Positions 4,248-24,000 of a DNA stretch of 24,000 bases are shown in pieces. Origin of the DNA: an uncultured Porticoccus sp. (GTDB lineage: Bacteria; Pseudomonadota; Gammaproteobacteria; Pseudomonadales; Porticoccaceae); NCBI RefSeq assembly GCF_913061305.1, contig NZ_CAJXST010000004.1, forward strand, positions 278,860-302,859. Reading direction: 5' to 3'. The notes under the pieces are model-generated. The model had not been told where the DNA came from. It ran no database searches and saw only the letters and a program-made list of their open reading frames with translations. The position numbers and the translations under genes were made by a program. Each line of letters starts with the position of its first letter. Positions within the stretch are counted from its first letter, which is position 1.

Positions 4248-4651
4248 TGAAAGTGTTGATGACTGAATATCTCCGTATTGATCTGGATTCGGAAAACTGG
4301 GAGTGTCGGGTGTGTGACCACGTGATTGGCCCAGCCCGCGGCAACTACAAAGAGGGTTTGCTGGTATACAACCGTGATCCAGCAGATATCCACCCGTCGA
4401 TTATCGACCCTGAAAAATACCGTTTCACCTTCTGTCCCGACAGGGAGTGGGTCAACATTTACGAGTTTTACTGTCCGTCCTGTGGCACTCAGGTAGAGGT
4501 TGAATACACCTTCCCCAACCATATGCCACTCTACGATATGGAAGTAGATATTGATGCCCTGAAAGAGCAGTGGAGTCACCGCGAAGAGATTCTCGAGCCG
4601 GTGAAAGGCCCCAATATTCTGGTAGATCGCTGTCACACCCACAAGCACTGA
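4247..4651 (+). CDS. Acetone/acetophenone carboxylase gamma-subunit family protein (small 4-Cys zinc protein)
   Basis: 134-aa ORF. Its ATG overlaps the upstream stop (TAATG, 4245..4249). Two Cys pairs (WECRVCDH and EFYCPSCGTQVEVEY) and a NYKEG block match my recollection of the acetone carboxylase gamma family. Confidence 0.8.
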   Translation: MKVLMTEYLRIDLDSENWECRVCDHVIGPARGNYKEGLLVYNRDPADIHPSIIDPEKYRFTFCPDREWVNIYEFYCPSCGTQVEVEYTFPNHMPLYDMEVDIDALKEQWSHREEILEPVKGPNILVDRCHTHKH

Positions 4652-4706
4652 TAGGGCTTGTTGATTGGTGATTGAATAAATTAGGTCTGTTTTAGGAAAA
4701 AAGGTT

Positions 4707-6857: not shown

Positions 6858-6879
6858 GTGGATATAGGGGTATTTGATT

Positions 6880-9156: not shown

Positions 9157-9157
9157 T

Positions 9158-10018
9158 ATGGCTTTAGAACTTACGTCCTATCTGGCAGCCGGGGGGGAAA
9201 CCCCCCGGCTTTGGATTAATTTCAACGACTACACCAAAAAACTATTGCTGGGCAAGGATGAAAATCCCTGGACCAACCCCGCTGCCTATATGTCGTTTTA
9301 TCGTCAGGCTCACGGTCTGGTGAAAGCCCAGGTAGTTGTTATCGATGTGTGGGACCTGTTTCAGCACTGGATCAGGGAAGACGCGGAGGCACTGCCGGCC
9401 ATGGCGGGCAAGCGGCGGGTCACTGCCGCCCTGAAAGCCATGCTGGAAGCCTATGCACCGCGTGAACTGTTGGCAGAGGTCATCACGGCCCTGGCCAATA
9501 ACTACAGCAGTTCTGCCCCTCTGGTCATGGTGCTGCCATCCCCCCGTGCGCTGCTGGTCAAGGCTCATCAGGCCGCCAACGGCGAGACTGCCGAGCCGGA
9601 TGAAATGAGCGTCGATACGGCAGCAATGTACGTGGCCGATTTCCTGCGTTATTTCAGCGAAACCGAGCTCTCCGGTGTGTTGCTGGTGGAAGATCCCGCA
9701 CTGATGCCTGCCAGCGGTGCTGAGTTGACCTGGTATCAGCCCGTTTATAACGTAGCAAAACACTACCGCTGGTCTGTGGGGCTGTATCTGCCCACAGCGG
9801 ATGCCGATTTCGATGTGCCCGCAGATCTGGCCTTTACCATTGCCCCGGCGACATCGCCGTTGGGGGCCACATCCAAAGGTGTCGAAGTGACAGACCTGCT
9901 CTGGGGTGATCAGGCGGGCCAATCGCTACCATCGGTGGAGGGATTTTATTACCTGACTATTCCGCCGGATGCGAAACCCGAGTTGGTACTTGATACCCTG
10001 TCGAGCCTGAAGGGTTAA
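9158..10018 (+). CDS. Hypothetical protein (286 aa), tightly coupled to the carboxylase genes; possible accessory (epsilon-like) subunit
   Basis: The track ORF 9083..10018 overlaps the upstream gene. I prefer ATG 9158 (MALELTSYLAAGG...), which is 1 nt after the TAG stop and has AAGGA about 9 nt upstream. It has no motif I can assign and no signal peptide or TM segment. Its codon usage and composition resemble its neighbours. Confidence 0.6.
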   Translation: MALELTSYLAAGGETPRLWINFNDYTKKLLLGKDENPWTNPAAYMSFYRQAHGLVKAQVVVIDVWDLFQHWIREDAEALPAMAGKRRVTAALKAMLEAYAPRELLAEVITALANNYSSSAPLVMVLPSPRALLVKAHQAANGETAEPDEMSVDTAAMYVADFLRYFSETELSGVLLVEDPALMPASGAELTWYQPVYNVAKHYRWSVGLYLPTADADFDVPADLAFTIAPATSPLGATSKGVEVTDLLWGDQAGQSLPSVEGFYYLTIPPDAKPELVLDTLSSLKG

Positions 10019-10046
10019 CCGGATCCAGTCGTAAGCGAGGCCCATC

Positions 10047-11612
10047 ATGCGTCTAGTCGATTTTCTCGATCAGAGTCCTGCCCTGTCCTCAGAGAAAGCG
10101 AAGTTTGTCGATCTGGACAATGATCTGTCGCTGAGCTATCGGCAAATGGTCGATGCCTCGGTCAAGATTGCCGCGTTGTTAAAGGAACGGGGGGTGAAGC
10201 GACAGGACATCGTCGCTACCTACGCCCCCAATTCCGTGGCGGCCTTCTGCTGCATCTTCGCCATTTCCCGGGCGGGTGCTGTCTGGTTGCCGCTGAATAT
10301 GCGCAACACCTTTGAGGCCAACCGCAAATTGATTGAAAAATCCGGTGCGGTAAAACTCTTTGTGGACGGCAGCGTCGCCACCGCTTTTCCTGAACTGTCC
10401 GACACTTTTCCCGATGATCAGCTCATTGAACTCAATGGCCAGCGTGTCGCCGGTATTGATCTTCGTGCGCTTTCCGGTCAGGCATCGGTCGTCGATTCGG
10501 AAAGCGATGTGGATGACGGGGCAGGGCTGGTCAACCTGTTTGCCACTGGGGGCACCACTGGCGACTCCAAGCTGGCGGAGTGGGGAAGTCTCACCTGGGA
10601 TACGCTTTCGGCGATTCAGAATGAATTGATGCCTTTGCCTGAGATTCCCGCCTGCTATCTGGTGGCGGCTCCCATGACCCATGCCGCCGGTATAGCCGCT
10701 TTCGAAGTGATTCGCCAGGGTGCCAACGTTGTCGTGATGGAGGGCATGGTGCCGGAGAGACTGCTGGCCACTATCGAAACCCATCGGGTCACCCACCTGT
10801 TCATGCCGCCCACCGCGATCTACATGTTACTGGCCCATCCTCGGGTGAAAGCCTGGGATTACAGCAGCCTGCGTTATTTCTGGTATGCGGCGGCACCGAT
10901 GTCGGTGGAAAAGCTCAAGGAAGCCATTGACGTTTTCGGGCCGGTGATGGTGCAGACCTACGGTCAGGCTGAAGCGCCGATGCTCTGTACCTTCCTCTCC
11001 GCCGAAGATCACGTGCTGGCGCTGGAAGGCAACAACCCCTCCATACTGCGTTCCTGTGGCAAGACATCGCCTCACGTCGAGGTGGCCGTTATGGATGACG
11101 AGGGCAACCTTCTCGAGCCGGGGCAGGAGGGAGAAATTGCCATCAGGGGCAACCTGCTGATGCGGGCCTATTACCGGAATCCTGAAGCTACCGAAGCGAT
11201 CCGCTGCGAGGGCGGCTGGCAGCGCTCCGGAGACATCGGCGTTTTTGATGAGCAGGGTTACCTGGCGATTGTCGACCGCAAGCGGGACATGATCATTTCC
11301 GGTGGCTTTAATGTCTACCCCAGCGAAATCGAGCAGTTGCTCTGGGGGCATTCGGCGATCAAGGACTGTGCCGTGATCGGTATCCCCGATGAAAAATGGG
11401 GCGAGCAGGTTACCGCAGTGGTGGAATTAAAGGATAAATCCCAATCGCCGGACGAGCAGGAGATTATTCAATACTGCAAAAGCAAGCTGGGTAGCGTCAA
11501 GGCACCCAAGCAGGTTCTGTTCTGGGATGAGCTGCCGCGCAGTCCCGTTGGCAAGGTTCTGAAAAAAGAAATTCGCAAGGTTTTCTGGGAGGCGGCGGGT
11601 CGCAAGATCTGA
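10047..11612 (+). CDS. Acyl-CoA synthetase / AMP-dependent ligase (class I adenylate-forming enzyme); candidate beta-ketoacid-CoA ligase
   Basis: 521-aa ORF. Motifs are ATGGTTGDSK (P-loop-like A3), YGQAE (A5), SGDIG...DRKRDMIISGGFNVYP (A7/A8) and PRSPVGKVLKKE (A10 Lys). Confidence 0.9.
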   Translation: MRLVDFLDQSPALSSEKAKFVDLDNDLSLSYRQMVDASVKIAALLKERGVKRQDIVATYAPNSVAAFCCIFAISRAGAVWLPLNMRNTFEANRKLIEKSGAVKLFVDGSVATAFPELSDTFPDDQLIELNGQRVAGIDLRALSGQASVVDSESDVDDGAGLVNLFATGGTTGDSKLAEWGSLTWDTLSAIQNELMPLPEIPACYLVAAPMTHAAGIAAFEVIRQGANVVVMEGMVPERLLATIETHRVTHLFMPPTAIYMLLAHPRVKAWDYSSLRYFWYAAAPMSVEKLKEAIDVFGPVMVQTYGQAEAPMLCTFLSAEDHVLALEGNNPSILRSCGKTSPHVEVAVMDDEGNLLEPGQEGEIAIRGNLLMRAYYRNPEATEAIRCEGGWQRSGDIGVFDEQGYLAIVDRKRDMIISGGFNVYPSEIEQLLWGHSAIKDCAVIGIPDEKWGEQVTAVVELKDKSQSPDEQEIIQYCKSKLGSVKAPKQVLFWDELPRSPVGKVLKKEIRKVFWEAAGRKI

Positions 11613-11703
11613 ACCGTTCCCGTCTCGGCTGCGTTTTTTATACACCTGTTGGCCGGGGCTGAAACACTTAACCATCTGTCTGTAATAGTAGTGAGGATAT
11701 ATT

Positions 11704-12969
11704 GTGAAGGTTAGTATTGTTGGTGCGTATAACAGCAAGTTTGGTGCGTTCGTCAAACGCGACCGTGAAACCGGTGAGGTCGAGGACCTCAAATCCTTTT
11801 ATGAATTGCTGACAGAAGCGGGGGCGGGTGCCATCGCTGATGCCGGGCTGGAAGCAAAGGACATCGATGCCATCTGGGTCGGTGCCTGCTCTCCATCCCT
11901 GTTCGTGAATCAGGAACACGTCGGGCCGCTGGCGCTGGAGATTGATCCCGAAGGGTTGCTGTTCAAGCCCACCACCCGCACCGAAGGAGCCTGTGCCACC
12001 TCCTCCCTGGCCATCTACAATGCCGCCTACGCGGTGGCCTCCGGCCGGTTCAAAAATGTGCTGGCGATTGGTGTCGAGAAAATGAACACCCTGAATACCG
12101 CCGGGGTGACCCATGCGCTGTCCTGTTGCTCCTACTGGCCGGAAGAGGGTAACAGGGGCATGACCTTCCCCGGTTTGTTTGCCGAACTGGGCAAGGCTTA
12201 CCAGGAGAAAGAAGAACTGTCCCCCGAACAGTTGCGCATCATGTTGGCCCACGTCAGTGCCCTGAACTACCGCAACGGTATCCAGAATCCACTGGCGCAT
12301 TTTGGCCCCGGTAGCATACCGGACATCAACAAGTTGACTACCGCCGAGGCGATCCTCAACCTGCCGGAATCGGGTAAGGGTAGCAACCCGATGATTGCCC
12401 CGCCATTGCGTCTGCACGATTGCTCACTGATTACCGATGGGGCGGCCGCCGTGGTGCTCACTTCAAGCGACAACGCCAAAGCCAGTTTCAATCATGCCGT
12501 TGAGCTGTCCGGTATCGGCCATGTGACCGATCGAATGATGCTCAAGGAGCGTATCGGCCGCCTGCATGAGCTTCGCGCCACTTGCCACGCCGTCGACCTG
12601 GCCCTGAAAGAGGCGGGTGCCACCGTGGATGATCTCGATCTGGCGGAGGTGCATGACTGCTTCACTATCAACCAACTTCTCTGCGTCGAAGCCATTGGCC
12701 TGTCCGAGTCGGGTCGTGCCGGTTACGATTTCATGAGTGGTAAATACGACCCTGACAGCGACTGTCCTATCAACCTGTCCGGTGGTCTGAAATCCAAGGG
12801 GCACCCGGTGGGTGCCACAGGGGCATCGATGCACGCGCTGGTCTACAAACAACTGGTGGGCGAACCGATCGGGGTGGCGGCAAAGGGCAATCCCGAAGTG
12901 GCGATGACCGTTAACATCGGTGGTTCCGGTGTGACCAACTGTGTCTCGGTGATGCGCCGACTCAAGTAG
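11704..12969 (+). CDS. Thiolase-fold protein (SCP-x / nonspecific-lipid-transfer-type thiolase subfamily); candidate beta-ketoacyl-CoA thiolase
   Basis: 421-aa ORF with a GTG start and GAGGA 7 nt upstream. The N-terminus is MKVSIVGAYNSKFG. The nucleophile context is EGACATSSLA. EVHDCFTINQL and GGLKSKGHPVGATG blocks are typical of this thiolase subfamily. Confidence 0.85.
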   Translation: MKVSIVGAYNSKFGAFVKRDRETGEVEDLKSFYELLTEAGAGAIADAGLEAKDIDAIWVGACSPSLFVNQEHVGPLALEIDPEGLLFKPTTRTEGACATSSLAIYNAAYAVASGRFKNVLAIGVEKMNTLNTAGVTHALSCCSYWPEEGNRGMTFPGLFAELGKAYQEKEELSPEQLRIMLAHVSALNYRNGIQNPLAHFGPGSIPDINKLTTAEAILNLPESGKGSNPMIAPPLRLHDCSLITDGAAAVVLTSSDNAKASFNHAVELSGIGHVTDRMMLKERIGRLHELRATCHAVDLALKEAGATVDDLDLAEVHDCFTINQLLCVEAIGLSESGRAGYDFMSGKYDPDSDCPINLSGGLKSKGHPVGATGASMHALVYKQLVGEPIGVAAKGNPEVAMTVNIGGSGVTNCVSVMRRLK

Positions 12970-12980
12970 CACTTTCCTCC

Positions 12981-13027
12981 CTGACAGGGTGCGGGCCGGT
13001 CACCGGCTCGCCCCTGCCAGTTTTTTT
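12981..13027 (+). terminator. Rho-independent terminator ending the carboxylase / ligase / thiolase operon
   Basis: A long GC-rich hairpin spans 12981..13020 (ctgacagggtgcgggccgg-tca-ccggctcgcccctgccag). It has about 17 pairs including one G-U, one bulge and one mismatch. T7 follows immediately at 13021..13027. Confidence 0.7.
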
Positions 13028-13232
13028 GTCCTCTCCCTGTCGTCCCAAAAAGTCTTGATTCCAATCAAACTTCCTGAACTTTTGTTGTCACAGTATTTGT
13101 TTTCCTGTGGGCTTGGTTTAATAATTGTCCCGTGGGTTATGATAGAGCTGGTTCCGGCAAGTTGTTTCGTACCGCACGCCTGGAACCGGTAGTTGTAGAT
13201 GTAGCAAGAATAAAAAATCAGGAGATGATGAG

Positions 13233-13955
13233 ATGCCAAAAGTAGCACTGGTGACTGGGGGAACAAGAGGTATCGGTGAAGTCATTGCTATTGAGCTCAA
13301 GGAGGCGGGCTATCTGACGGTGGCCAATTACGGAGGCAACGATGAACGGGCTCGCGAGTTCAGGGAGCGAACCGGTATTCCCACCTACAAGTTTGATGTA
13401 TCCGATTTCGATGCCTGTAAAAACGGTATCGAAACGATAGAGCGCGATATCGGACCTGTCTCCATTCTGGTCAATAACGCGGGGATCACCCGCGATGGCA
13501 CTTTGCACAAAATGTCCCGGCAATCCTGGCAGGAGGTGCTGGATACCAATCTGGGTTCCTGTTTCAACATGAGCCGCTGTGTGATCGAGGGCATGCGTGA
13601 GCGCCGCTTTGGCCGTATCGTTAATATCGGCTCACTGAACGGTCAGGCAGGGCAGTATGGGCAGGTCAACTACGCTGCGGCAAAGTCCGGTATTCACGGC
13701 TTTACCAAGGCGCTGGCGCTGGAAGGTGCGGGCATGGGGATTACAGTCAATGCGGTGGCCCCCGGCTATGTGGAAACCGATATGGTGAGGGCCGTGCCCG
13801 CCGCTGTGCTGGAAAAAATTGTCGCCCGTATTCCCGTTGGTCGGCTGGGCTCCGCCCACGATATCGCCCGGGGCGTATTGTTTCTGGTGTCCGATGAGAG
13901 CGGTTTCATTACTGGCTCCACCCTGTCCATCAACGGTGGTCAGCATATGTACTAG
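13233..13955 (+). CDS. phbB: Acetoacetyl-CoA reductase (NADPH-dependent short-chain dehydrogenase, PhbB/PhaB type)
   Basis: 240-aa ORF with GGAG 8 nt upstream. It has TGGTRGIG, NNAGIT and YAAAK (catalytic Y-x3-K). Along its length it resembles the roughly 241-aa PhbB sequences I remember (VALVTGG.RGIG ... GRIVNI.S.NGQ.GQ.GQ.NY.AAK ... ITVN...PGY..T.MV.A.P ... IPVGRLG ... FITGST.S.NGGQ). Confidence 0.85.
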   Translation: MPKVALVTGGTRGIGEVIAIELKEAGYLTVANYGGNDERAREFRERTGIPTYKFDVSDFDACKNGIETIERDIGPVSILVNNAGITRDGTLHKMSRQSWQEVLDTNLGSCFNMSRCVIEGMRERRFGRIVNIGSLNGQAGQYGQVNYAAAKSGIHGFTKALALEGAGMGITVNAVAPGYVETDMVRAVPAAVLEKIVARIPVGRLGSAHDIARGVLFLVSDESGFITGSTLSINGGQHMY

Positions 13956-14025: not shown

Positions 14026-16041
14026 TCAGGCCGGCTTCTTCAGACGGTACTTTTTCATTTTCTGGTAGAGTGTACTCTTGGCGATGCCCAACTGTTTGGC
14101 CGCTTGGGTCATATTGCCTTCCGCCTGTTTGATGGCGGCCTCGATGGTGGATTTTTCAACCCGGTCCAGATTGCCCTGGGGCGGGGTGATGAAAGCGTTG
14201 GAGTGTTCCGGCTCCAGATTGCTTTCCCCCGGACGATAACCTTCGGGGAGATCGTCAATCGTCAGGGTCTCGTTGCTGGACATAAAGCACATGCACTCCA
14301 CCACATTGGCCAGCTCGCGGATATTGCCCGGCCACTCGCGGCTTTTCAGGGCTGTCATCAGGCCCGGTGAGAAGCGTTTCGCTGCGATGTCGTCGGTTTT
14401 GCGGATGCGTGTCATCACCAGTTGAGCGATCCCTTCGATATCTTCCTTGCGGCCCGACAGTGGGTCCAGACTGATGGTCACGGTCGATAGACGGAAATAC
14501 AGATCCTTGCGGAACAATCCCTCGTTCACCGCCCCTTTCAGGTCGCGATTAGTGGCGGCAATCAGTCGGAAGTCCACCGGAATCGGTTTGATATCCCCCA
14601 CCCGGTAAATTTTCTTCTCCTGCAGTACCCTCAGAAACACCGGCTGCAATTCCAGCGGCAGTTCGCCAATTTCGTCGAGGAACAAGGTGCCGCCATTGGC
14701 CGCCTCGATTTTGCCCATCATGCCGCCCTTGCGTGCGCCCGTGAACGCCCCCTCCACATGGCCGAACAGCTCACTGCTGAGAATATCCCGGGTGAAGCCA
14801 CCGCAATTGAGGTCGATAAACGGCCCGTCAGCGTACTGGCTGCTGTCGTGGATGGCCTTGGCAAACACTTCCTTGCCGACCCCGGTATCGCCCAGGATCA
14901 ACACTGGCAGCGGCGTATTTGCCGCCTTGCGGGCCTTGTCCGCGCTGGCCTGAAAAGAGGGGCTCTTGCCGTAGATGTCATCAAACGGATCGAGACTGCC
15001 TGCCGGGCTGGCGGCCAGTGGCTCGGCCGTGGGCTTGGCGGCAGAGCGGCGCGGTGATGGCACCAGCACCTGAAAGCCGACGATATTGCCCTTGTGAAGT
15101 ATCGGTTCCACCCAATCCTCCGACACCCACAATCCTGCGTCGTGCGGGTAGACGATTTCATCGCCGCCGAAGCGCTGCATGGAGAGGCGTCGTTTGGTTT
15201 CGGGATCGTAGTCGATACCCAGGGAGTCCAGCGCGGCAGCGGCGTTGGCGGTGGAGTTGATCAGTCGGCCCTGTTTGTCCAGCAGCAGCTTGCCGGTGTT
15301 GCGGTAGTGGCCGAACTGGCTGTTGCTGTGCTCGATGATCAGGCTCCACAGGTCCGAGGTCTTTTTCGCCAGGCCCGATTGAATCTGGCTGGCCCAGGCC
15401 ACCACCAGCGGCACGTGGAATTTATCGTAAATGCTGCACAGTCCGGACAGGTCAATCACGCCCATCATCTGGTTGTCGTAGGGGTCGGCGATGACCGCCG
15501 CCGTGCAGGTCCAGGGTTTAAAGCCCTGAATGTAGTGTTCTTCGCCGTGCACCTGGGTCGGCTTGCGGGTTGCCATGGCGGTGCCCACGGCGTTGGAGCC
15601 GGAGTGGCCCTCGTTCCAGCCACTGCCCTCCACCAGTCCGATATCCCGGGCATCGTCAATGGTTCTGGGGTCGCCAACAATCTGCAGGTTCAGTCCCTGG
15701 TAGTCGGTCAGGTAGAGGATGGTCTCGAGATCCTGCAGAAACAGGCGCGCCTGTTCCAGCACAGGTTCGGCGCACAGCAATAAATCGGAGTTTCTCAGCC
15801 GGTGGTGGGACAGGGTGTTTTCGGAGACCAGCAGTGGTGCCGCTTTCTGTTCCGGGTTGACGCCCTGGGACAGGCAGCGCTCCCAGGAGCTGGCAATCAC
15901 GTCGCGAATCGGCAGGTCTTTGGCCTGGCCGCCCTTGCAGAGAAATTGCTCCCACGCGCGATCAATACCCCGCTGGGCATTCAGGCTGTCGCCGCTGGGC
16001 CGATAAATCAGGCCGGGCTTTTTGGTACTTGAGCCTCTCAC
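14026..16041 (-). CDS. Sigma54-dependent transcriptional activator, AcoR/AcxR type (N-terminal GAF-like sensor, AAA+ sigma54-interaction domain, C-terminal Fis-type HTH)
   Basis: 671-aa ORF with a GTG start and GGGAGG 9 nt upstream. Walker A is GDTGVGKE, the sigma54-contact loop is GAFTGA (VEGAFTGARKGG), and there are ELFGH and GTLFLDEIGELP motifs. The C-terminal HTH is GNMTQAAKQLGIAKSTLYQKMKKY. The N-terminal block GSGWNEGHSGSNAVGTAMA...EHY...WTCTAAVIADP...GVIDLSG is the AcoR-family sensor signature. Confidence 0.9.
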   Translation of the reverse strand: MRGSSTKKPGLIYRPSGDSLNAQRGIDRAWEQFLCKGGQAKDLPIRDVIASSWERCLSQGVNPEQKAAPLLVSENTLSHHRLRNSDLLLCAEPVLEQARLFLQDLETILYLTDYQGLNLQIVGDPRTIDDARDIGLVEGSGWNEGHSGSNAVGTAMATRKPTQVHGEEHYIQGFKPWTCTAAVIADPYDNQMMGVIDLSGLCSIYDKFHVPLVVAWASQIQSGLAKKTSDLWSLIIEHSNSQFGHYRNTGKLLLDKQGRLINSTANAAAALDSLGIDYDPETKRRLSMQRFGGDEIVYPHDAGLWVSEDWVEPILHKGNIVGFQVLVPSPRRSAAKPTAEPLAASPAGSLDPFDDIYGKSPSFQASADKARKAANTPLPVLILGDTGVGKEVFAKAIHDSSQYADGPFIDLNCGGFTRDILSSELFGHVEGAFTGARKGGMMGKIEAANGGTLFLDEIGELPLELQPVFLRVLQEKKIYRVGDIKPIPVDFRLIAATNRDLKGAVNEGLFRKDLYFRLSTVTISLDPLSGRKEDIEGIAQLVMTRIRKTDDIAAKRFSPGLMTALKSREWPGNIRELANVVECMCFMSSNETLTIDDLPEGYRPGESNLEPEHSNAFITPPQGNLDRVEKSTIEAAIKQAEGNMTQAAKQLGIAKSTLYQKMKKYRLKKPA

Positions 16042-16098: not shown

Positions 16099-16548
16099 CA
16101 ATGACGTGCTAAATCCATCGTCTGCGCTCACTGTTATTGGGCTTGCTCACTGCCTTGTTGCGTCCCACTGGCATTTCCCGCCGGGCAAAGATAAGTATAA
16201 GCCTCACACGGGGGCGACCGATAATAACACGCAGCGCCATGACCTGTAAGTCCGTTGATAAGAGCCCGTGCTGACGCGTGCCGGACAGTGCAGCAACCGC
16301 GAATTCTCCACCCGCCGGGCCCGCTCGGCCCAAAAAAATATCTGGAACCCCATAAATTGGGCTTGCCATGATTTTTCTTTAATCATACGATTTGTGTCGG
16401 GGTTCGTCCGATAATAATACGTTTAATATCGTGAAAGCCCCATGAACAAAGGCGTTCAGCGAAGAAGGTGCGACCGGAAGACCCTCGGTAACCAGTGTAT
16501 TGACCGTTTTTCGGACGCAATTACCACATTTATGTGGCAAAACTGTTG

Positions 16549-16577
16549 TTGCTGTTGGGGAAGAAGCTGTTTATATT
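16549..16577 (+). promoter_or_regulatory. Candidate sigma70 promoter for the envelope-module operon
   Basis: TTGCTG (16549..16554), a 17-nt spacer, then TATATT (16572..16577), about 65 nt upstream of the DUF1302 start. This is a motif match only. Confidence 0.3.
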
Positions 16578-16642
16578 TCGCATTGCTGTGCGGAATGTGC
16601 GGCGGCAACTAATAATAGTTAATAAATTAGTGGGAGAAGAAA

Positions 16643-18454
16643 ATGGTGATGAAAAACAACACCAGCATCAAGAAAGTAGGTGGCTTTCTGCTGGGCTTTG
16701 GGGGGCTGATGGCCGCCGCAAGCCCGACGTTTGCAGCCGATTTTGACTACGGCATGGACGAAAGTTTTTTTAAGCTCAGCTATAACGGCTATGTCCGCAC
16801 CACCGTCGGTGTGCTGCTGAATGATCATAAGGAAACCAGTGCCGACGACAAATGGCGCATGAACCAGGCGCGGGCCACCGTCAATATCGACTGGGACATC
16901 AAAACCGGGCCGCTGAACTGGCGGGTGGTCACCCGTGTCGAGCATGAGCACAAAACCGACTACCTCGAAGATCTGTCCGAGCGTATGGAAAAGCAGCACG
17001 ATGCGCTGAATGTCCTGACGCCAGGTACCGATAACCGCGGCAACTACGGCCGTGACGGCAAGAAAGGCAGTTTCATGGACCAGTATGAAACCACCGACGA
17101 GCTGATGGATATCGTGCGCGAAATCTACTTCGACTGGCAGATCACCGACCGCCTGTTTGCCCGTATCGGCCGCCAGCAGCTAGTGTGGGGGGAGTCCGAC
17201 TTCTTCCAGGCGATGGACGTGGTGCACGGCTATGACTTCCGCCAGCGGCTGTTCTATGAGAACAACGAAGAATGGCGCAAACCGCTGTTCCTGTTGAACT
17301 TCGTCTATGAGGTTCACGAGTGGGACGGCATGCTCAACTTCTATATTCGCCCGGGGATGGATCGCTCCGAGGATATGGGCAGCAACTACAATATCGAGGG
17401 CGGTCGCTGGATCCCCACCCCCTACCGCGGGGTTGACTTCACTCAGGTGACCGATGCCTATAACGAAGACCATAACAAGGGCGACTGGGACGACTGGACC
17501 TACGGTATCCGTTGGAACGGCCGCTGGGGCTCCGCCGGTTACTCGTTCTCCTATATGAAAACCTTTAACCCGGCTCCGGTGATCAACCCGAACCTGCGTT
17601 TGAATGCAGGCGGTGATCTTGCTGCCTTTGGTGAGTACTATGGGGTAGGTGATTCCACTGCTGTTGGTTTCAATCCTGGTGGAATGCCTACGGATGTTGC
17701 CCTTGAGGGCTATGGTGATGGCTACACTGGCAGTAAACTGCTGGGTGAGTGGCTCTATCCGGAAATCGACGTGTTCGGCTTTACCGTCAACTACTTCAGC
17801 ATGGCGATGGACTCCACGTTGAGTGCCGAAGTGGCGTTTATTCCGAACAAACCCTACAACTACGGCCAGTTGCAGTCCGACCTGCCCGGTTGGGGTGGTA
17901 TCAAGGAGAAGGATACCCTGAACGTCATGCTGCGGATCGACAAGGAGTTCAAATGGCAGCAGATTCTCGGTACCCACCGTCCGTCACTGTCCAGTATCCA
18001 GCTGTTTGATACCTGGATTATCAACCGCAAGAAAAGCGATGAGATTGTCGAATTCGCCTCCTTCGGTGAAGAGAAATCCGAGCACACTGTCTACCTGACC
18101 CTGTTCACCCTGCTCAACTACACCCGTGACACCATCAACCCCTCGCTGGTAGTCGGTACCGACCTCACCAACGGCGGCGGTTTTGTGATCCCGGCGGTGG
18201 AGTTTGTCTGGGGTAACGACTGGCGCCTGAAGGTTGAAGCTGACCTGTGGTGGAACGACGGCGACCGCAAAAAAGTCTGTGGTAAAGCGGATAACAACGG
18301 TAATGCTGCAAATCTAGGCCAGGATTTGGGCGTAAGCGGTTGTGATAAAACCGTCGGTGACGACCTGCTCGGCGTGCGTGAAAACGATGCCTCCTTTATG
18401 GATTGGTTCGCCCGCGACAACCAGCTGGTCTTCAAGCTGACCAGGCAGTTCTAA
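16643..18454 (+). CDS. DUF1302 family outer-membrane (beta-barrel) protein
   Basis: 603-aa ORF with GGGAGAAG upstream. It has a Sec signal peptide (...LMAAASPTFA|ADF) and the block RIGRQQLVWGESDFF that I associate with DUF1302 (R.GRQ.v.WGES.F). It is rich in aromatic/Gly alternating strands and has a C-terminal ...KLTRQF with a terminal Phe typical of OMPs. It is syntenic with DUF1329. Confidence 0.78.
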   Translation: MVMKNNTSIKKVGGFLLGFGGLMAAASPTFAADFDYGMDESFFKLSYNGYVRTTVGVLLNDHKETSADDKWRMNQARATVNIDWDIKTGPLNWRVVTRVEHEHKTDYLEDLSERMEKQHDALNVLTPGTDNRGNYGRDGKKGSFMDQYETTDELMDIVREIYFDWQITDRLFARIGRQQLVWGESDFFQAMDVVHGYDFRQRLFYENNEEWRKPLFLLNFVYEVHEWDGMLNFYIRPGMDRSEDMGSNYNIEGGRWIPTPYRGVDFTQVTDAYNEDHNKGDWDDWTYGIRWNGRWGSAGYSFSYMKTFNPAPVINPNLRLNAGGDLAAFGEYYGVGDSTAVGFNPGGMPTDVALEGYGDGYTGSKLLGEWLYPEIDVFGFTVNYFSMAMDSTLSAEVAFIPNKPYNYGQLQSDLPGWGGIKEKDTLNVMLRIDKEFKWQQILGTHRPSLSSIQLFDTWIINRKKSDEIVEFASFGEEKSEHTVYLTLFTLLNYTRDTINPSLVVGTDLTNGGGFVIPAVEFVWGNDWRLKVEADLWWNDGDRKKVCGKADNNGNAANLGQDLGVSGCDKTVGDDLLGVRENDASFMDWFARDNQLVFKLTRQF

Positions 18455-18538
18455 TAAAGATAATAACGAAAATTTGTGCAACTATTGCAAAACCGGATAG
18501 TCACAAATAAGACTTATTTTAAAACTGGGAGTAAGACT

Positions 18539-19987
18539 ATGTATAAGAAGTTACTAACGGCGTCGGTCGTGGCATCAATGGGCTTTGCGCCCTTGATGGC
18601 ATCCGCGGAAGACGAAACGGCGCTGCCGCTGTACGCCACCGACCGGGAACCCGGTTATGTGCAGCCAACGGCAGACGGTTCCAAGCCTAATCCAGTGTTC
18701 TACGGCAGCCCGGCCAAAGCCGGTCGCTGGGACAACGGCAAACCCACTGAGTCGGAAAAACTGCCCGAGGGTGTGACCGAAGACCAGGTAATGAAAGCGG
18801 GTACCGTGATCAATGCGGCCAACTTTGATAAGGTCAAGGACATGTACTTCGAAGGTAAGCGTGTCGGCGACATGATTACCGAGAAAGTCGAGTGGATGAT
18901 CCGCGAAAAAAACCTGGCGATGAATATCCGTCATTCGGAATTCATCGAGATGGACGAGAAGTACATGCAGGCCACTCAGGATGGCAAGGGCAAAGTAAAA
19001 TTTGACCCCGAAACTCGTGCAGTGTCTGGCTGGGAAGCCGGTATGTTCTTTGACCCGCAAGAAATCTCTATGGACGACCCCCACGCCGGTGACAAACTGA
19101 TCTGGAACCTGCGTTCACCGACCTACGGTGCAACCATGGACTTGCGTCACATCTCCTGGGTATTCCTCGACGGTGAAGACGGCATGGAGCGTATCCAGCG
19201 CTGGTGGGCTCGTCGCTACTACATGGAAGGCCGTCTCGACGGTGGTCCACTGGTAGAAGGTGATGGCGATATCATGCAAAAAACCGTTCTGGTGGCAATT
19301 TTCCCCCAGGATATTAAAGGTATCGGTATCTTCTCCGTACGCTACAACGACCCCACTGCGGAAACACCGGATGACGTTTGGGCCTACCTGAAGTCGGTTC
19401 GTCGTGCACGTCGTCTGTCCGGTAACGCCTGGATGGATCCAATCGGTGGTACGGTGCAGCTGTACGATGACTGGGATATCTGGGATGCGGTTCCGACCAA
19501 ATACAAAGAAGTAAAACTGGTTGATCGTCGCTATGTATTTGCGATTGCTCACGCACCGCTGATGACCGTGGATCTGCGCTTCAGAAACACCATTCAGGAG
19601 TTTCCAGCAGTCGGCATGGACATCCCGCCTCACTACTTCCCCGCGCCCCAGGTGCAGTGGGAACCACGTGAAGTATGGGTAATCGAAGGCACCCCGCCCG
19701 ATGTTCACCCCTACAGCAAAAAAGTAGTGTATATGGAAGTCGATTATCCTCGTCCCTACCTGGGTGAGGCCTACGACAAAAACGGTGAATTCTGGAAAGG
19801 CTTTATCTTCCAGAACCGTCTCGACGTAGGTGATGATGGCTACAAGGCGCTGATGCCGGTTGTTGGTCACATCATTGACTTTAAAGCAGACTTCGCGACC
19901 AACTGGTCTTCCAACATGAAAGCCAATCCGGCCGGTGTTGAAGAAACAGACGTCACGCTGCAAACGTTGATTGCTCTGGCTCGTTAA
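18539..19987 (+). CDS. DUF1329 family periplasmic protein (LolA-like fold family)
   Basis: The track ORF starts at GTG 18476. I prefer ATG 18539 (MYKKLLTASVVASMGFAPLMASA|EDE, a clean signal peptide, with GGGAG 9 nt upstream). The GDKLIWNLR block and the overall size (482 aa) fit DUF1329. It has the canonical position directly after a DUF1302 gene. Confidence 0.78.
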   Translation: MYKKLLTASVVASMGFAPLMASAEDETALPLYATDREPGYVQPTADGSKPNPVFYGSPAKAGRWDNGKPTESEKLPEGVTEDQVMKAGTVINAANFDKVKDMYFEGKRVGDMITEKVEWMIREKNLAMNIRHSEFIEMDEKYMQATQDGKGKVKFDPETRAVSGWEAGMFFDPQEISMDDPHAGDKLIWNLRSPTYGATMDLRHISWVFLDGEDGMERIQRWWARRYYMEGRLDGGPLVEGDGDIMQKTVLVAIFPQDIKGIGIFSVRYNDPTAETPDDVWAYLKSVRRARRLSGNAWMDPIGGTVQLYDDWDIWDAVPTKYKEVKLVDRRYVFAIAHAPLMTVDLRFRNTIQEFPAVGMDIPPHYFPAPQVQWEPREVWVIEGTPPDVHPYSKKVVYMEVDYPRPYLGEAYDKNGEFWKGFIFQNRLDVGDDGYKALMPVVGHIIDFKADFATNWSSNMKANPAGVEETDVTLQTLIALAR

Positions 19988-20007
19988 TTCGAACCGGTTC
20001 GTTCTGA

Positions 20008-20053
20008 AACAGGGCTGTCAGGCAAACCTAATCGTTTATCTGGCAGCTCTGTT
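20008..20053 (+). other. Intercistronic RNA hairpin between the DUF1329 and BNR genes
   Basis: AACAGGGCTGTCAG (20008..20021) pairs with CTGGCAGCTCTGTT (20040..20053). That is 14 contiguous pairs in RNA (12 Watson-Crick and 2 G-U) with an 18-nt loop. No U-tract follows. Confidence 0.5.
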
Positions 20054-20161
20054 GCAGTTTACACACTGAAAAATCAATAAAAACGACCGATCAGACGGTG
20101 TTCGTAGCACTGTAGTAGTAAAGGTGGCCTTCCTGGTCATTTAGATTTTTTTGGGGGTTTT

Positions 20162-21313
20162 ATGAATGTTGCTGGACAGGACCATGCTGGAACCAATTCC
20201 TCTGAGCCCGCAGGGCCGGTAGAAAAAACAGCAGGCCAAAAATTTATTGCATTGGTTTTATCAATTTTACCCTGGGCTATTGTCGGCACTCTGTTGTGGG
20301 CTGGCCTGTTTGTCAAACCAACTGCCGTGATAGAGGAAGTCACACCACCGGCGATTGACCGCCGTGACAATATTCTCGGCATCACCCAAGTCGGCCCCGA
20401 TGTGTATTGGGCGGCTGGTAACTACGGAAAAATCCTTATTTCCACTGACCGGGCGAAAACCTGGACCAATCAAAACTCCACCGTGGATACGCATTTTCAG
20501 GATATCGCTGCCTGGGATGAGAACCGTGCTGTAGCCGTGGGCAACAAAGGTGTTGCGGTGGTGACCGACGATGGCGGTAAGACCTGGATGTCAGTGGAGA
20601 CACCCAAATCCGAAATTTCCAACAAGTTGTTGAAAGTCCATGTATCTCCCGATGGCGAAGCGCTGGCGGTGGGTGAAATGGGCATGATCATTCAAAGTCT
20701 GGATTACGGAAATACCTGGAAGCGCCTGCGCGATGAAGAGGATATCTTCTTCAATGACGTTATCCGCACCAACGAAAACACCATCATCATTGCCGCTGAA
20801 GCAAGGGCGATTGAAGATCCTGATGCGCCTTATGATCCACACCAGCTGGTTCCGGACGCCTACGGTCTGATCTTCAAGAGTGATGACAATGGTGAGACCT
20901 GGCGCACCATTAAGACCGATAGCCTGAACAGCTTCGCGGCCATTGATTTCCGCAATGAACTGGAAGGGGTTGCGGTCGGTTTGTCCGGTACCATTGTCGC
21001 CACCTTTGACGGTGGTGAAACCTGGGCGCATGTCGACAGCGAAACCTCCGGTATGAAAGAACACCTCATGGATATTGCTTGGTCTGAGCACCTCAAGGAG
21101 TGGGTAGGTATTGGCAACAAAGGCAAGTGGATAACCTTCTCCGGTGATCTGTCGTCATTTGAAACACGTTTCCTGACAGAAGCCGCCGCAGATGTGAAGG
21201 ACTTTACGTCCCACGCTGAACTCGCCCTGACCGGTGATGGCGGGTTTGTCGGTGTCGGTGAGACGGTCGGTTATATGGATCTCGAAACGAACCAGTGGAC
21301 ATTGTTGCACTAG
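20162..21313 (+). CDS. BNR/Asp-box repeat beta-propeller protein with an N-terminal membrane anchor (Ycf48 / photosystem II stability-factor-like family)
   Basis: 383-aa ORF. It has one N-terminal TM helix (FIALVLSILPWAIVGTLLWAGLFV). Five Asp-box-like motifs are present: STDRAKTW, TDDGGKTW, SLDYGNTW, SDDNGETW and TFDGGETW. Confidence 0.8.
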   Translation: MNVAGQDHAGTNSSEPAGPVEKTAGQKFIALVLSILPWAIVGTLLWAGLFVKPTAVIEEVTPPAIDRRDNILGITQVGPDVYWAAGNYGKILISTDRAKTWTNQNSTVDTHFQDIAAWDENRAVAVGNKGVAVVTDDGGKTWMSVETPKSEISNKLLKVHVSPDGEALAVGEMGMIIQSLDYGNTWKRLRDEEDIFFNDVIRTNENTIIIAAEARAIEDPDAPYDPHQLVPDAYGLIFKSDDNGETWRTIKTDSLNSFAAIDFRNELEGVAVGLSGTIVATFDGGETWAHVDSETSGMKEHLMDIAWSEHLKEWVGIGNKGKWITFSGDLSSFETRFLTEAAADVKDFTSHAELALTGDGGFVGVGETVGYMDLETNQWTLLH

Positions 21314-21316
21314 TCA

Positions 21317-21346
21317 TTGACACAGTTGCGTGACGATTCAAATAAA
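21317..21346 (+). promoter_or_regulatory. Candidate internal sigma70 promoter ahead of the RND gene
   Basis: A perfect -35 TTGACA (21317..21322), an 18-nt spacer, then AATAAA (21341..21346). The -10 is weak, and this is a motif match only. Confidence 0.25.
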
Positions 21347-21399
21347 CAATTAAAAGATGCGCCCATCCAGGCAGTTTCGGATGGTTGGTGGAGGATAAC

Positions 21400-23748
21400 A
21401 TGTTAGAAAAATTTGCACTTGCCTGTATCAAATTCAGAAAAAGTGTTCTGGCAGTGGTGGCTGTTCTCACAGTTATATTTGCTTACTTTGCACAGAATAT
21501 CGAAGTTAAAACCGTATTTGACGACCTGATGCCGACCTCGCATCCCTATGTTCAGATACACAACGAATACAAAAACACCTTCGGTGGCACCAATATCATC
21601 ACCTTCATGATCGAAGCGGAAGAAGGTGATATTTTCCAGATGCCGGTTTTGAAGAAGGTCCGTGATCTCACCCAGGGTCTTTACAAGATCAATGCGATCA
21701 ATGAATTCCAGATCTATTCAATCGCCGGTAAAAAACTGAAGGAAGTGCGCGCTTCCACAGAGGGGATTGAAAGCTTCCCCTACATGTGGCCCGCTCTTCC
21801 GGAAGATGAAGCTGGTATTGAAAGGCTTCGGGAAGCAATCTTGCGCAGCCCGCTGGTCTATGGACCCTATGTGTCCAAAGATCTGACAGCTACGCTGGTG
21901 ACGGTGGATTTCTACGACAATCTGCTCGAGTACAACCGCGCCTACAAACAGGCTTACGAACTGGTAGACCGGTTGGATGATGACACCGTCAATATCAGCC
22001 TGGTGGGCAATCCGGTTCTGTACGGTTGGGTAAACCACTTCCTGCCTGAAACCATGAATCTGGTTCTGGTGGCGGCGCTGATCTTCCTGGTACTGCTGTT
22101 CCTGATCAACAGAACCTGGCGCGGTACGCTGTTGCCACTGCTGTCCGGTGCGATCAGCGCCACCTGGGCACTGGGCGCTGCACACATGCTGGGCATTCAC
22201 TTCGACCCGCTGGTAGTCGTGGTGGCCATGCTGATTACTGCCCGTGCAGTATCGCATTCGGTACAGATGATCACCCGCTTCCACGAAGAAATCGACAAGA
22301 TGACCGAGGGTCACGATCTCTGTTCAACGGAGGCGGCCCGCCTGACTCTGAAGGATCTGTTGCGTCCCGGCTTGCTGGGTATTGCTACGGATGCTGGCTG
22401 TGTGACCGTGGTTGCGATCAGCCCGATTCCTCTGTTGCAGAAGCTGGTGGTACTGGCGGTTGTCTGGGTTGGCACCGTGGCGGTGAGCTCGATTATTGTC
22501 ACGCCGATCCTGCTGTCATGGGTGAGAAAACCCAAGTCCTACGCTCACCCGCTGAACCTTGACCTGCTGCTCATCCGTCCTTTCCTGAACATGTGTGTCA
22601 AGATCGTGGAAACCCGGGCGCGCTATGTGGTGGTTGCGTTCTCTTTGGCCCTATTTATCGTTTGTGGCTTTTACGCGGTCGATCTGAAGGTGGGCGATGC
22701 CAACCCCGGTTCACCGATCCTCTGGCCCGATGCCCGTTACAATATCGATTCTGACAATATCAACAGCAAGTTCCCAGGCGCCGACCGGATGTTTGTGGTG
22801 TTTGGTAACGAAACCCGCGATAAAGAAGGCCTCATGAAAGAGGTCGACTCTCTGGACAGCATGTTGCGTTTTCAGCGCTACATGGAGCAGCAAGAGGAAA
22901 TTGGTGGCAGTCTGTCCCTGGCGGATGTTTTGCCGACGGTTAACCAGACAGTGCGGGAAGGTAACTACCGCTACGTGGAGCTGGGTGAAACCACCACCAA
23001 CAACGCCGAACTGATCTATATGTTCGAACGTGCCTCTGAGCCCGGTGACCTGCTTGGCTTTACCGATGTGAAAGCCACCAATGCCTCGGTGACGTTGTTC
23101 TTTACCGACCGTCAGGGCAAGACGATCCAGACAGCGATTGCCCGGATCAATGAGTTCAAGGACAACATGGCGGTTGAAGGGCTGACCATTCACATGGCTG
23201 GCGGTATCATCGGCGTGATCGGTGCGGTGAATGAGGTCATCCTCTCCGGACAGATTCAGTCGATTGCACTGGCGCTCTTCATTCTGGTGATGATGTGTAT
23301 CATTGTGTATCGCTCCAGTATTGCGGGGATGTTCTTTATGGTCCCAGTGGTGCTGTCCAACCTGGTAACCTTCGCCTTCATGGCATGGCAGAACATTGGT
23401 ATGAACATCAATACCGTGCCTGTTGCTGCGCTGGGTATCGGTCTGGGCGTGGACTACGCACTGTATATCTGTGACCGTATCCAGATCGAATACAAATCTG
23501 GCAAGTCACACATCGAAGCCATTTCCATGTCCCTGCACTGTGCGGGACGGGGTGTGCTGGTAACCGCTCTGGTACTGATTGCCAGCGTTGCTGTATGGCT
23601 GTTCTCTTCATTGAGATTCCAGGCTGAGATGGGCATGTTGATCGGCCTGTGGCTGTGTGTCTCTGCATTGAGTGCGTTGTTCCTGATGCCGGCTCTTGCC
23701 TTCATCTTCAAGCCGCGCTTCCTGTTTGGTGAAGTACAGCGTCACTAA
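21400..23748 (+). CDS. RND-superfamily permease of the MMPL / putative-exporter type (12-TM, two periplasmic loops)
   Basis: The track start is TTG 21385. I prefer ATG 21400 with GGAGGA 5 nt upstream (MLEKFALACIKFRK...). It has two internally repeated halves, each with one TM helix, a large soluble loop and a five-TM bundle. The second half carries GIGLGVDYALY, typical of MMPL/RND TM10. Confidence 0.85.
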   Translation: MLEKFALACIKFRKSVLAVVAVLTVIFAYFAQNIEVKTVFDDLMPTSHPYVQIHNEYKNTFGGTNIITFMIEAEEGDIFQMPVLKKVRDLTQGLYKINAINEFQIYSIAGKKLKEVRASTEGIESFPYMWPALPEDEAGIERLREAILRSPLVYGPYVSKDLTATLVTVDFYDNLLEYNRAYKQAYELVDRLDDDTVNISLVGNPVLYGWVNHFLPETMNLVLVAALIFLVLLFLINRTWRGTLLPLLSGAISATWALGAAHMLGIHFDPLVVVVAMLITARAVSHSVQMITRFHEEIDKMTEGHDLCSTEAARLTLKDLLRPGLLGIATDAGCVTVVAISPIPLLQKLVVLAVVWVGTVAVSSIIVTPILLSWVRKPKSYAHPLNLDLLLIRPFLNMCVKIVETRARYVVVAFSLALFIVCGFYAVDLKVGDANPGSPILWPDARYNIDSDNINSKFPGADRMFVVFGNETRDKEGLMKEVDSLDSMLRFQRYMEQQEEIGGSLSLADVLPTVNQTVREGNYRYVELGETTTNNAELIYMFERASEPGDLLGFTDVKATNASVTLFFTDRQGKTIQTAIARINEFKDNMAVEGLTIHMAGGIIGVIGAVNEVILSGQIQSIALALFILVMMCIIVYRSSIAGMFFMVPVVLSNLVTFAFMAWQNIGMNINTVPVAALGIGLGVDYALYICDRIQIEYKSGKSHIEAISMSLHCAGRGVLVTALVLIASVAVWLFSSLRFQAEMGMLIGLWLCVSALSALFLMPALAFIFKPRFLFGEVQRH

Positions 23749-23780: not shown

Positions 23781-23810
23781 AAACAGGGCCCGCGAGGGCC
23801 TTGTTTTTTT
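23781..23810 (+). terminator. Rho-independent terminator of the envelope-module operon
   Basis: AAACAGGGCCC-GCGA-GGGCCTTGTTT forms an 11-bp stem (one G-U) with a GCGA (GNRA) tetraloop. It runs into a T-tract ending at 23810. Confidence 0.75.
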
Positions 23811-24000
23811 GTAGCGTAGATAACGGGTTCAGTGTCACGAGCCCGGTGGCAAGCTGGTTCCTGTGGACCCTGAATGTTGATCGAAAATAAAGTCGGCAGA
23901 AGTTTTGAGTGTGCCGGTTCAATCGGTCCGACTATCCACTAATTGAAAATACGGATTTGACCCAACAACAATAATGAAAATGAATACTGATGTGCTGGAA

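Follow-up and report, generated by a model that had tools for sequence, protein, structure and literature searches.

Transport cassettes that combine a DUF1302 outer membrane protein, a LolA-like DUF1329 protein, a Ycf48-like BNR propeller and an RND permease have been named and studied since 2016-2018 (10.1101/072470; PMC6394551; PMC6449761). Puentes-Cala and Harder (2018) described AmeABCD of Castellaniella defragrans 65Phen as a tetrapartite RND transporter, assigned it to a new HAE3 lineage and reported that the organization of the cassette is conserved (PMC6394551). Deletion of ameABCD lowered the tolerance of monoterpene hydrocarbons and led to greater Nile Red accumulation, and acetate gave a partial rescue (PMC6394551). 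Here we analyzed a 24,000-nt stretch of DNA (hereafter, the window; positions 278,860 to 302,859 of contig NZ_CAJXST010000004.1) from a metagenome-assembled genome (MAG) of Porticoccus sp. (Cellvibrionales), to which several other MAGs are 96-99% identical. The region 16643-23748 of the window carries four genes of these families. We assign this quartet to the AmeABCD-type four-component HAE3-RND cassettes as a new member from Porticoccus, its RND component fitting the MMPL family clearly and the HAE3 model best but below the cut-off. An earlier note on this DNA had implied that the quartet was unexplored; the system is already known, but the note was right that no mechanism has been established. 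What is newly added here is that the AmeABCD-type sub-branch to which the quartet belongs adjoins ketone-degrading genes in many bacteria.

Several other studies bear on these genes. Price et al. reported cofitness of the four genes in Shewanella, Kangiella and Pseudomonas and, from pleiotropic phenotypes, proposed that they export a constituent of the cell envelope; the Pseudomonas cluster is divided, with DUF1302/DUF1329 as one pair and BNR/RND as the other (10.1101/072470). Suvorova and Gelfand (2019) assigned COG4447, COG1033, PF07044 and DUF1302 genes to the AphS/AphR/AphT regulons of aromatic catabolism in Betaproteobacteria and suggested a role in solvent stress (PMC6449761). Thompson et al. 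reported that growth on Tween 20 and butyl stearate depends on the four genes (10.1101/2020.07.04.188060). Further, the benzene degrader ORM2a strongly expresses a homologous 'Nanopod' cluster (PMC13101534), and DUF1302 and DUF1329 proteins occur in nanopod/vesicle preparations of Delftia (PMC3110197). AlphaFold-multimer predictions on homologues yielded a DUF1302-DUF1329 complex (interface predicted template modeling score, ipTM, 0.84 in PMC13499233) and a DUF1329-BNR-RND heterotrimer (Foldy, PMC10866462; ECLIPSE, PMC13499233). The proposal of the earlier note that the quartet forms an alternative envelope-spanning system for hydrophobic molecules is in line with the published genetics and with these predictions (PMC6394551; PMC10866462; PMC13499233).

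The four components of the Porticoccus quartet

The quartet consists of four open reading frames (ORFs) on the + strand, located as in the earlier note, and is closed by a terminator:

16643-18454, + strand: DUF1302 outer-membrane beta-barrel protein, 603 aa (PF06980 match, signal peptide, porin-like model)
18539-19987, + strand: DUF1329/LolA-like soluble periplasmic protein, 482 aa (PF07044 and LolA_like matches; mechanical ORF from GTG 18476)
20162-21313, + strand: Ycf48-like BNR beta-propeller protein, 383 aa (PSII_BNR match, N-terminal transmembrane anchor, five Asp boxes)
21400-23748, + strand: MMPL/HAE3-type RND permease, 782 aa (MMPL match; mechanical ORF from TTG 21385)
23781-23812, + strand: intrinsic terminator (11-bp stem with 6 G-C pairs, 4-nt loop, T-run)

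Every family named for these genes in the earlier note was upheld by a hidden Markov model (HMM) search. The translations likewise bore out its description of a barrel with a signal peptide and a terminal Phe, a DUF1329 protein with a signal peptide, an anchored propeller with five Asp boxes and a 12-transmembrane permease (approximately 12 segments), and the strong terminator that it had placed after the cluster is present at 23781-23806.

The DUF1302 protein matched PF06980 with 40.2 bits (cut-off, 23.2) over profile positions 66-524 of 541. Its signal peptide comprises residues 1-31, ending ...SPTFA/AD, and the C-terminus reads ...TRQF, of which the last three residues (RQF) are invariant in an alignment of 29 homologues. 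The AlphaFold2 (AF2) model built from these homologues (predicted local distance difference test, pLDDT, 66.7; predicted template modeling score, pTM, 0.70) was all-beta with approximately 18 long strands, and the best folds in the PDB were OmpF-type porins and the 18-strand alginate channel AlgE (E, approximately 1e-10 to 1e-8). By sequence, no match to the PDB was detected at E up to 1, in agreement with the published statement that no structure is available.

The DUF1329 protein (ORF 18476-19987) matched PF07044 with 167.5 bits and, secondarily, LolA_like with 37.6 bits. Its true start is most likely ATG 18539 rather than GTG 18476, because GGGAG precedes the former as a ribosome-binding site and the public gene call also begins there. 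The signal peptide comprises residues 1-23 (MYKKLL...LMASA/ED) and is not followed by a lipobox Cys. A sequence search of the PDB matched 3BK5 and 9TP6. The AF2 model, computed from an alignment of 15 sequences, was of low confidence (pLDDT, 58) and served to assign the fold class only; its only significant folds belonged to the LolA superfamily, namely 3BK5, 9TP6 (LolA3), 3BUU and 4Z48, a crystallized DUF1329 member. The LolA-like fold that the earlier note had ascribed to this family is supported here by the HMM and PDB matches. An esterase function of DUF1302/DUF1329 (Thompson 2020) was considered and rejected in view of the porin-like barrel and LolA-like carrier folds, and the original group later reinterpreted these proteins as transport components (PMC10866462). 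Separately, a Pro/Gly/acidic stretch of approximately 60 residues, predicted to be disordered, follows the DUF1329 signal peptide in the Porticoccus clade only (18608-18790, residues approximately 24-84). DUF1329 homologues outside Porticoccus/Cellvibrionales do not have this stretch, and their matches start at residues 75-88.

The BNR protein matched PSII_BNR/Ycf48 with 57.7 bits (cut-off, 27) as well as Sortilin-Vps10, and its matches in the PDB were the Ycf48 structures 2XBG and 5OJR. Asp boxes occur at residues 94, 135, 179, 240 and 281. A single N-terminal transmembrane helix (residues approximately 28-50; window positions 20243-20311) is kept in 66 of 67 homologues, which are 31-97% identical overall. 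The motif of this helix, P-W/x-x-I-V/I-G-x-L-L-W/Y-A-G-x-F-V-K (LPWAIVGxLLW/YAGxFVKP), is conserved from Gamma- to Betaproteobacteria despite an overall identity of approximately 31-35%. Such conservation would be unusual for a simple anchor and points to a specific intramembrane contact; it suggests that the helix packs against a membrane partner, and the RND permease would be the most plausible candidate.

The RND permease matched Pfam MMPL with 92.5 bits (cut-off, 20.5), and its best NCBIfam model was TIGR00921 (HAE3) with 169.9 bits, which is below the cut-off of 351.9. The gene most likely starts at ATG 21400, because this codon has a good ribosome-binding site and is the start in the public gene call. 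The approximately 12 hydrophobic segments are accompanied by two periplasmic loops of approximately 165-185 residues each, and the nearest solved relatives in the PDB are MmpL4/5, MmpL3 and HpnN. Across 64 RND sequences, D685, Y686, Y689 and D692 (GVDY motif in transmembrane segment 10, TM10) and several polar residues of TM4 are invariant. These conserved residues and the short, HpnN-like periplasmic domains would fit a proton-relay transporter. The lipid-exporter models scored 68 bits for HpnN (cut-off, 752), 37 for BstA (1400) and 17 for MmpL3 (1400). The permease therefore lies outside these three families, each score being below the curated equivalog cut-off.

No HlyD/membrane-fusion protein (MFP) or TolC/outer-membrane factor (OMF) domain was detected in an HMM scan of the 16 larger ORFs of the window. 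Neither type occurs in the Pfam annotations recorded for genes called over 21.8 kb of the source contig, although a TolC-type gene may lie elsewhere in the genome. The earlier note had likewise found no adaptor or channel gene. Further, the AcrB-type model ACR_tran scored 19.3 bits on the permease (cut-off, 28), and the multidrug RND models scored 17-19 bits against cut-offs of 940-1250. The quartet is thus unlike a classical tripartite pump (RND + MFP + OMF): neither an adaptor nor a TolC/OprM-type channel is encoded near it, and its permease is not of the AcrB type.

When compared by family, size and context, AmeABCD and the quartet have in common a DUF1302 outer membrane protein, a DUF1329/LolA-like protein, a COG4447/Ycf48-like protein and an RND protein (COG1033/HAE3 in AmeABCD, with HAE3 as the best model but below the cut-off in Porticoccus), with sizes of 605, 451, 316 and 787 aa for AmeA-D and 603, 482, 383 and 782 aa for the Porticoccus quartet. 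Both lie inside a catabolic island for a hydrophobic substrate, and neither is accompanied by an MFP or TolC gene. They differ in that AmeABCD adjoins monoterpene degradation genes whereas the quartet adjoins those of ketone carboxylation. In addition, the Porticoccus BNR protein has a conserved N-terminal membrane anchor, in contrast to AmeC, which is predicted to be periplasmic, and the Porticoccus DUF1329 protein has the additional disordered N-terminal stretch relative to AmeB.

Gene order and linkage to ketone catabolism

The DUF1329 protein was used to scan one genome per species, which gave 80 loci at an identity of at least 62%. Counts refer to 53 species-level loci with at least 6 kb of flanking sequence on both sides, and individual loci are designated by L numbers. 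The earlier note had called for statistics of the gene neighborhood across genomes; these showed that the quartet is co-conserved, with all four genes on one strand in 49 of the 53 loci, and the catabolic clusters beside it were recorded. The genes were arranged in two orders. The order DUF1302-DUF1329-BNR-RND (gamma-type) occurred at 28 loci, mostly of Gammaproteobacteria and a few labeled otherwise, including a MAG of Kordiimonadaceae, and the order BNR-RND-DUF1302-DUF1329 (beta-type) occurred at 21 loci, mostly of Betaproteobacteria. Because the pairs are exchanged as intact units between these orders, the quartet reads as two swappable modules, one joining DUF1302 with DUF1329 (outer-membrane pair) and the other joining BNR with RND (inner-membrane pair). 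This swap of modules agrees with the split Pseudomonas loci and with the two predicted sub-complexes. The largest gap lies between the two pairs, 174 nt in the window and 89-291 nt in gamma-type relatives; within the pairs of the window, the gaps are 84 and 86 nt.

The quartet is preceded by the following features:

2313-13955, + strand: acetophenone-carboxylase-like operon encoding two HydA paralogues, a gamma subunit, HydB and a fifth protein, then an acyl-CoA ligase, a thiolase-like protein and a short-chain dehydrogenase/reductase (Pfam)
14026-16041, - strand: divergent sigma-54 activator with MimR_N, GAF, AAA+ and Fis-type helix-turn-helix (HTH) domains, AcxR/MimR-like (Pfam)

The best PDB match of HydB was acetophenone carboxylase (5L9W; 297 bits), compared with 144 bits for acetone carboxylase. 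The best NCBIfam models for the carboxylase were ApcC and ApcD, although the scores were below the cut-offs, and the fifth subunit (9158-10018) had no relative in Pfam or the PDB. By analogy with Aromatoleum, the operon would encode a complete pathway from a secondary alcohol or ketone to an acyl-CoA.

Apc-like genes (at least 50% identical to those of the window) were found within 10 kb of the quartet at 33 of the 49 complete quartets. They were arranged in at least three architectures: in one, the operon lies upstream and the activator is divergent; in another, the operon lies directly upstream and the activator is missing; in a third, the order is quartet-activator-carboxylase. This variety argues for functional coupling rather than inherited synteny. 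Other quartets adjoin different ketone-attacking enzymes. At one Methyloversatilis locus (L084), the quartet is flanked on one side by a true acetone carboxylase (1271 bits to 5SVB) and on the other by an acetate/acetoacetate-CoA-ligase-like gene, a thiolase and a sigma-54 activator, and two further beta-type loci (L070, L081) have weak hydantoinase-type matches at the same offsets. A flavin monooxygenase of the Baeyer-Villiger monooxygenase (BVMO) type and an alpha/beta-hydrolase accompany the quartet at five loci, which belong to three Neptuniibacter species, a 'Dokdonia'-labeled piece of apparent Neptuniibacter DNA and the betaproteobacterium Aquariibacter. At a few loci, the quartet adjoins fadBA-type or unrelated genes. 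Because three unrelated ketone-attacking enzyme systems recur beside it, these neighborhoods support a link of the sub-branch to ketone catabolism.

The connection to ketone catabolism that the earlier note had drawn from a single locus thus extends across the sub-branch. The note had further expected the substrates to be poorly soluble, and this part finds no support, since some quartets lie inside acetone-carboxylase clusters and acetone is miscible with water.

Some records fall outside this pattern or need care. Second DUF1329 copies of the sub-branch (62-70% identity) were found at L029, L074, L075 and L082, where the other three genes are not nearby, and the lone copies of L074, L075 and L082 adjoin hydantoinase-family genes. 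Such a solitary carrier may serve another system or may share a quartet encoded elsewhere. Three loci are labeled Dokdonia sp. (L045), Pontibacter sp. JAM-7 (L047) and Bacteroidota (L063); L045 is 98-100% identical to Neptuniibacter marinus, and the quartets of L047 and L063 are typical of Gamma- and Betaproteobacteria. Mis-binning or mislabeling in the public records is likely for all three. A distant quartet (37% identity), in which PGAP annotates exactly these four families, lies within a beta-oxidation-like cluster on plasmid 2 of Aromatoleum aromaticum EbN1; it confirms how widespread the cassette is and is uninformative as to mechanism. At the left end of the window, upstream of the carboxylase operon, genes for a cytochrome P460 family protein (548-1264, - strand) and a DUF3565/DUF1971 fusion (1403-1906, + strand) have no evident link to the quartet. 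At its right end, a small gene encoding a LuxR/GerE-type HTH protein (94 aa) begins just past the terminator (23974-24000) and extends beyond the window (L001, 17332-17616); according to published work, LuxR-type regulators are frequent companions of DUF1302/DUF1329 genes in Pseudomonas.

Candidate regulatory elements

A homologue of the activator (at least 35% identity) is present at 32 of the 53 related loci and is usually divergent from the quartet in the gamma-type order. It is likely that the activator regulates the ketone operon, and perhaps it regulates the quartet too. The following elements were identified in the window:

2192-2207: sigma-54-like site TGGTACGTCTATTGCA, a good match, upstream of the carboxylase operon
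16218-16231 and 16408-16421, + strand: CCGATAATAAYACG in two direct copies spaced 190 bp apart, between the activator and the quartet, with no other occurrence in the window
16535-16642, + strand: conserved leader and candidate promoter with the blocks AAAACTGTTGTTGC and GAAGCTGTTTATATT(G/T)CGCATTGC, a short inverted repeat and AAGTGGGAGAAGAAAATG
20041-20056, + strand: sigma-54-like match TGGCAGCTCTGTTGCA that departs from the consensus at one position, in the 174-nt gap separating the DUF1329 gene from the BNR gene

The earlier note had described the quartet as bounded by a candidate promoter. A conserved leader is indeed present, but the best sigma-54 match upstream of the DUF1302 gene (TGGCAAAACTGTTGTT, at 16535) is degenerate, with GT in place of the -12 GC. 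Strong sigma-54 matches occur upstream of the DUF1302 gene in the relatives L011, L035, L041, L043, L046, L047 and L067, and the degenerate TGGCAAAACTGTTGTT of the window is out of register with the good sites of the L011-L014 clade.

The leader (approximately 110 nt) is nearly identical in 13 genomes of the Porticoccus clade (the window, L009, L011-L014, L017, L018, L020, L023-L025 and L027), although their DUF1302 proteins are only approximately 60-66% identical. It can also be described by the block GAAGCTGTTTATATTGCGCATTGC, a TATATT box, the inverted repeat TTGCYGT-N12-RCGGCAA and a ribosome-binding site. The conservation of the leader more likely reflects a promoter or operator. When the leader was considered as a structured RNA, no match was detected in Rfam (E up to 1), and the RNAalifold prediction was limited to a hairpin of 5 bp (-4.9 kcal/mol) that showed almost no covariation; this reading was rejected.

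The internal TGGCAGCTCTGTTGCA site sits at the boundary of the pairs that are separate loci in Pseudomonas. It was detected only in relatives that are 96-99% identical and is absent from the next clade; confined to nearly identical genomes, it is possibly a chance match. With regard to the repeats, three genomes of the next clade (L011, L012 and L014), but not the fourth (L013), have GATAATAA similarly spaced from the start codon. GATAATAA is absent from nearly all more distant relatives, among which L040 has one copy at a different distance. The CCGATAATAAYACG repeats may be binding sites of a regulator, for which the activator is a candidate. A search for an operator common to the carboxylase and quartet promoters gave only one shared 9-mer, ATGACCTGT, whose corresponding 7-mer half-site (GACCTGT/ACAGGTC) is not conserved in relatives, and this candidate was rejected.

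Direction of transport and comparison with known systems

The most likely reading, in which we place about even confidence, is that the quartet is an outward, proton-driven, Lol-like relay for neutral membrane-active compounds, and not a continuous duct of the AcrAB-TolC type. The RND permease would extract such a compound, using the proton gradient through the invariant Asp-Tyr relay of TM10. The membrane-anchored Ycf48-like propeller on the permease would provide a periplasmic docking platform, where the soluble LolA-like DUF1329 protein would receive the cargo and then carry or bridge it to the DUF1302 barrel. The barrel, docked by DUF1329, would let the cargo out across the outer membrane. 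Co-expressed with the carboxylase pathway under the AcxR/MimR-like activator, the relay might act as a safety valve that limits the ketone load of the membrane during catabolism. The scheme builds on the parts, localization signals, folds, co-conservation and pathway context observed for the quartet; the contacts between the four parts we infer from published predictions on homologues, and the cargo is putative. The outward direction is suggested by the behavior of all characterized bacterial RND proteins and by the AmeABCD phenotypes. Characterized HAE3 and MMPL relatives (HpnN, MmpL3) transport lipids outward.

Several points weigh against an outward relay. No sequence feature fixes the direction of transport, and, as described above, the quartet has a degenerate sigma-54 match upstream of its first gene. 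Transport genes within catabolic operons more often encode importers. Further, the Methyloversatilis clusters imply acetone as the substrate, and because this compound is not very toxic and crosses membranes unimpeded, a dedicated pump is hard to rationalize there. Finally, loss of homologues causes growth defects on limonene (PMC6394551), on Tween 20 and butyl stearate (10.1101/2020.07.04.188060; PMC10866462) and on phenanthrene (as cited in PMC13101534), which are compatible with uptake as well as efflux.

These growth requirements are among the evidence for the opposite direction, in which DUF1302 would admit a ketone or a hydrophobic ester or alcohol, DUF1329 would ferry it, and the BNR-RND pair would insert it into or pass it across the inner membrane to feed the carboxylase or BVMO pathway. 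We regard such an uptake conveyor as possible but rather unlikely. It would account for the location of the quartet inside ketone catabolic clusters in three enzyme contexts, and a barrel with a soluble carrier is akin to known routes for the uptake of hydrophobic nutrients. In addition, the authors of Foldy refer to a substrate transport system (PMC10866462). The ameABCD mutant, however, was poisoned by high limonene even with acetate and accumulated more Nile Red (PMC6394551). A transporter is not required for small ketones such as acetone. Moreover, to our knowledge no bacterial RND transporter works as an importer. More specifically, the quartet might be a dedicated inward ketone conveyor, that is, an RND-dependent Lol-like relay bringing neutral ketones (long-chain or isoprenoid methyl ketones, acetophenones) to the inner membrane for carboxylation or Baeyer-Villiger oxidation. 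This we consider improbable; if true, it would be the first bacterial RND system in nutrient import and would define a function for DUF1302 and DUF1329.

There is similarly little probability, in our estimate, that the quartet remodels the envelope by exporting an endogenous lipid or envelope component to the outer membrane, vesicles or nanopods, so that the surface becomes adapted to solvents or hydrophobic substrates and no xenobiotic is transported. Export of a cell-wall component, as proposed by Price et al. (10.1101/072470), the presence of DUF1302 and DUF1329 in the Delftia preparations (PMC3110197), the LolA-like fold of the carrier and the endogenous lipids or siderophores carried by the nearest characterized RND relatives (HpnN, MmpL3/4/5) are all consistent with such a role. 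The tight and repeated linkage to ketone-specific enzymes and ketone-type activators points instead to a substrate-specific role, and no lipid-biosynthesis genes accompany the quartet in the neighborhoods examined. Two separate, co-traveling systems, with DUF1302 and DUF1329 forming an uptake pair of the outer membrane and BNR and RND an independent pair of the inner membrane, appear very doubtful. In their favor, each pair moves as a unit when the gamma and beta orders are compared, the pairs are separated by the largest gap, which holds a sigma-54-like site in the window, and in Pseudomonas they occupy separate loci with opposite phenotypes in one condition (10.1101/072470). Against them, all four genes are co-localized in 49 of the 53 loci and cofit in several species (10.1101/072470), both the barrel and the BNR-RND pair are predicted partners of DUF1329 (PMC10866462), and the internal sigma-54-like site is not conserved past nearly identical genomes.

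The DUF1302/DUF1329/BNR/RND cassette has a wide distribution among bacteria that degrade hydrocarbons, aromatics and terpenes and is conserved in Pseudomonas aeruginosa too. The ketone context gives it a defined, cheap and testable class of substrates (acetone, butanone, acetophenone and 2-alkanones), and the sub-branch has cultivable hosts, including Porticoccus litoralis, Neptuniibacter, Zoogloea dura, Aromatoleum diolicum and Methyloversatilis. Work on these could settle import versus export and could show how, when neither an adaptor nor TolC is present, a LolA-like carrier connects an RND pump with a porin-like barrel. The value of the locus is an open question made tractable, rather than a new kind of system.

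Among the relatives of the quartet, Sama_1588-1591 of Shewanella amazonensis and the Pseudomonas sets Psest_1122-1123 with Psest_1923-1924 and PP_0765/0766 with PP_2018/2019 have the same four families and the same two-module structure. These systems are housekeeping/pleiotropic or ester-linked (Tween 20) and regulated by LuxR or AraC proteins, whereas the Porticoccus quartet is contiguous, linked to ketones and adjacent to a sigma-54 activator. The four-gene set of Burkholderia sp. 383 adjoins a flavin monooxygenase and an esterase, like the Neptuniibacter and Aquariibacter loci (PMC6449761). The sets of the Aph regulons and of ORM2a are co-regulated or expressed with the degradation of neutral aromatic or solvent-like compounds (phenol, toluene and benzene), and not with ketone carboxylation.

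With HAE1 pumps such as AcrAB-TolC and TtgGHI/SrpABC, the quartet likely shares the role of proton-driven removal of membrane-active organic compounds, sometimes beside catabolic genes. In contrast to these pumps, it has neither an HlyD-type adaptor nor a TolC-type channel and instead comprises two unrelated periplasmic proteins and a porin-like barrel; judged by their length of approximately 165-185 residues, the loops of its RND protein would leave little room for an AcrB-type docking region. A likeness in the way of working is found with HpnN or MmpL3 combined with the Lol pathway (LolCDE-LolA-LolB), with which the quartet has in common an RND core with short periplasmic domains, a transmembrane Asp-Tyr relay and a soluble carrier of the LolA fold. 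Unlike the Lol pathway, however, the quartet would be energized by an RND protein and not by an ABC transporter, and its outer membrane partner is a large barrel and not a LolB-type lipoprotein.

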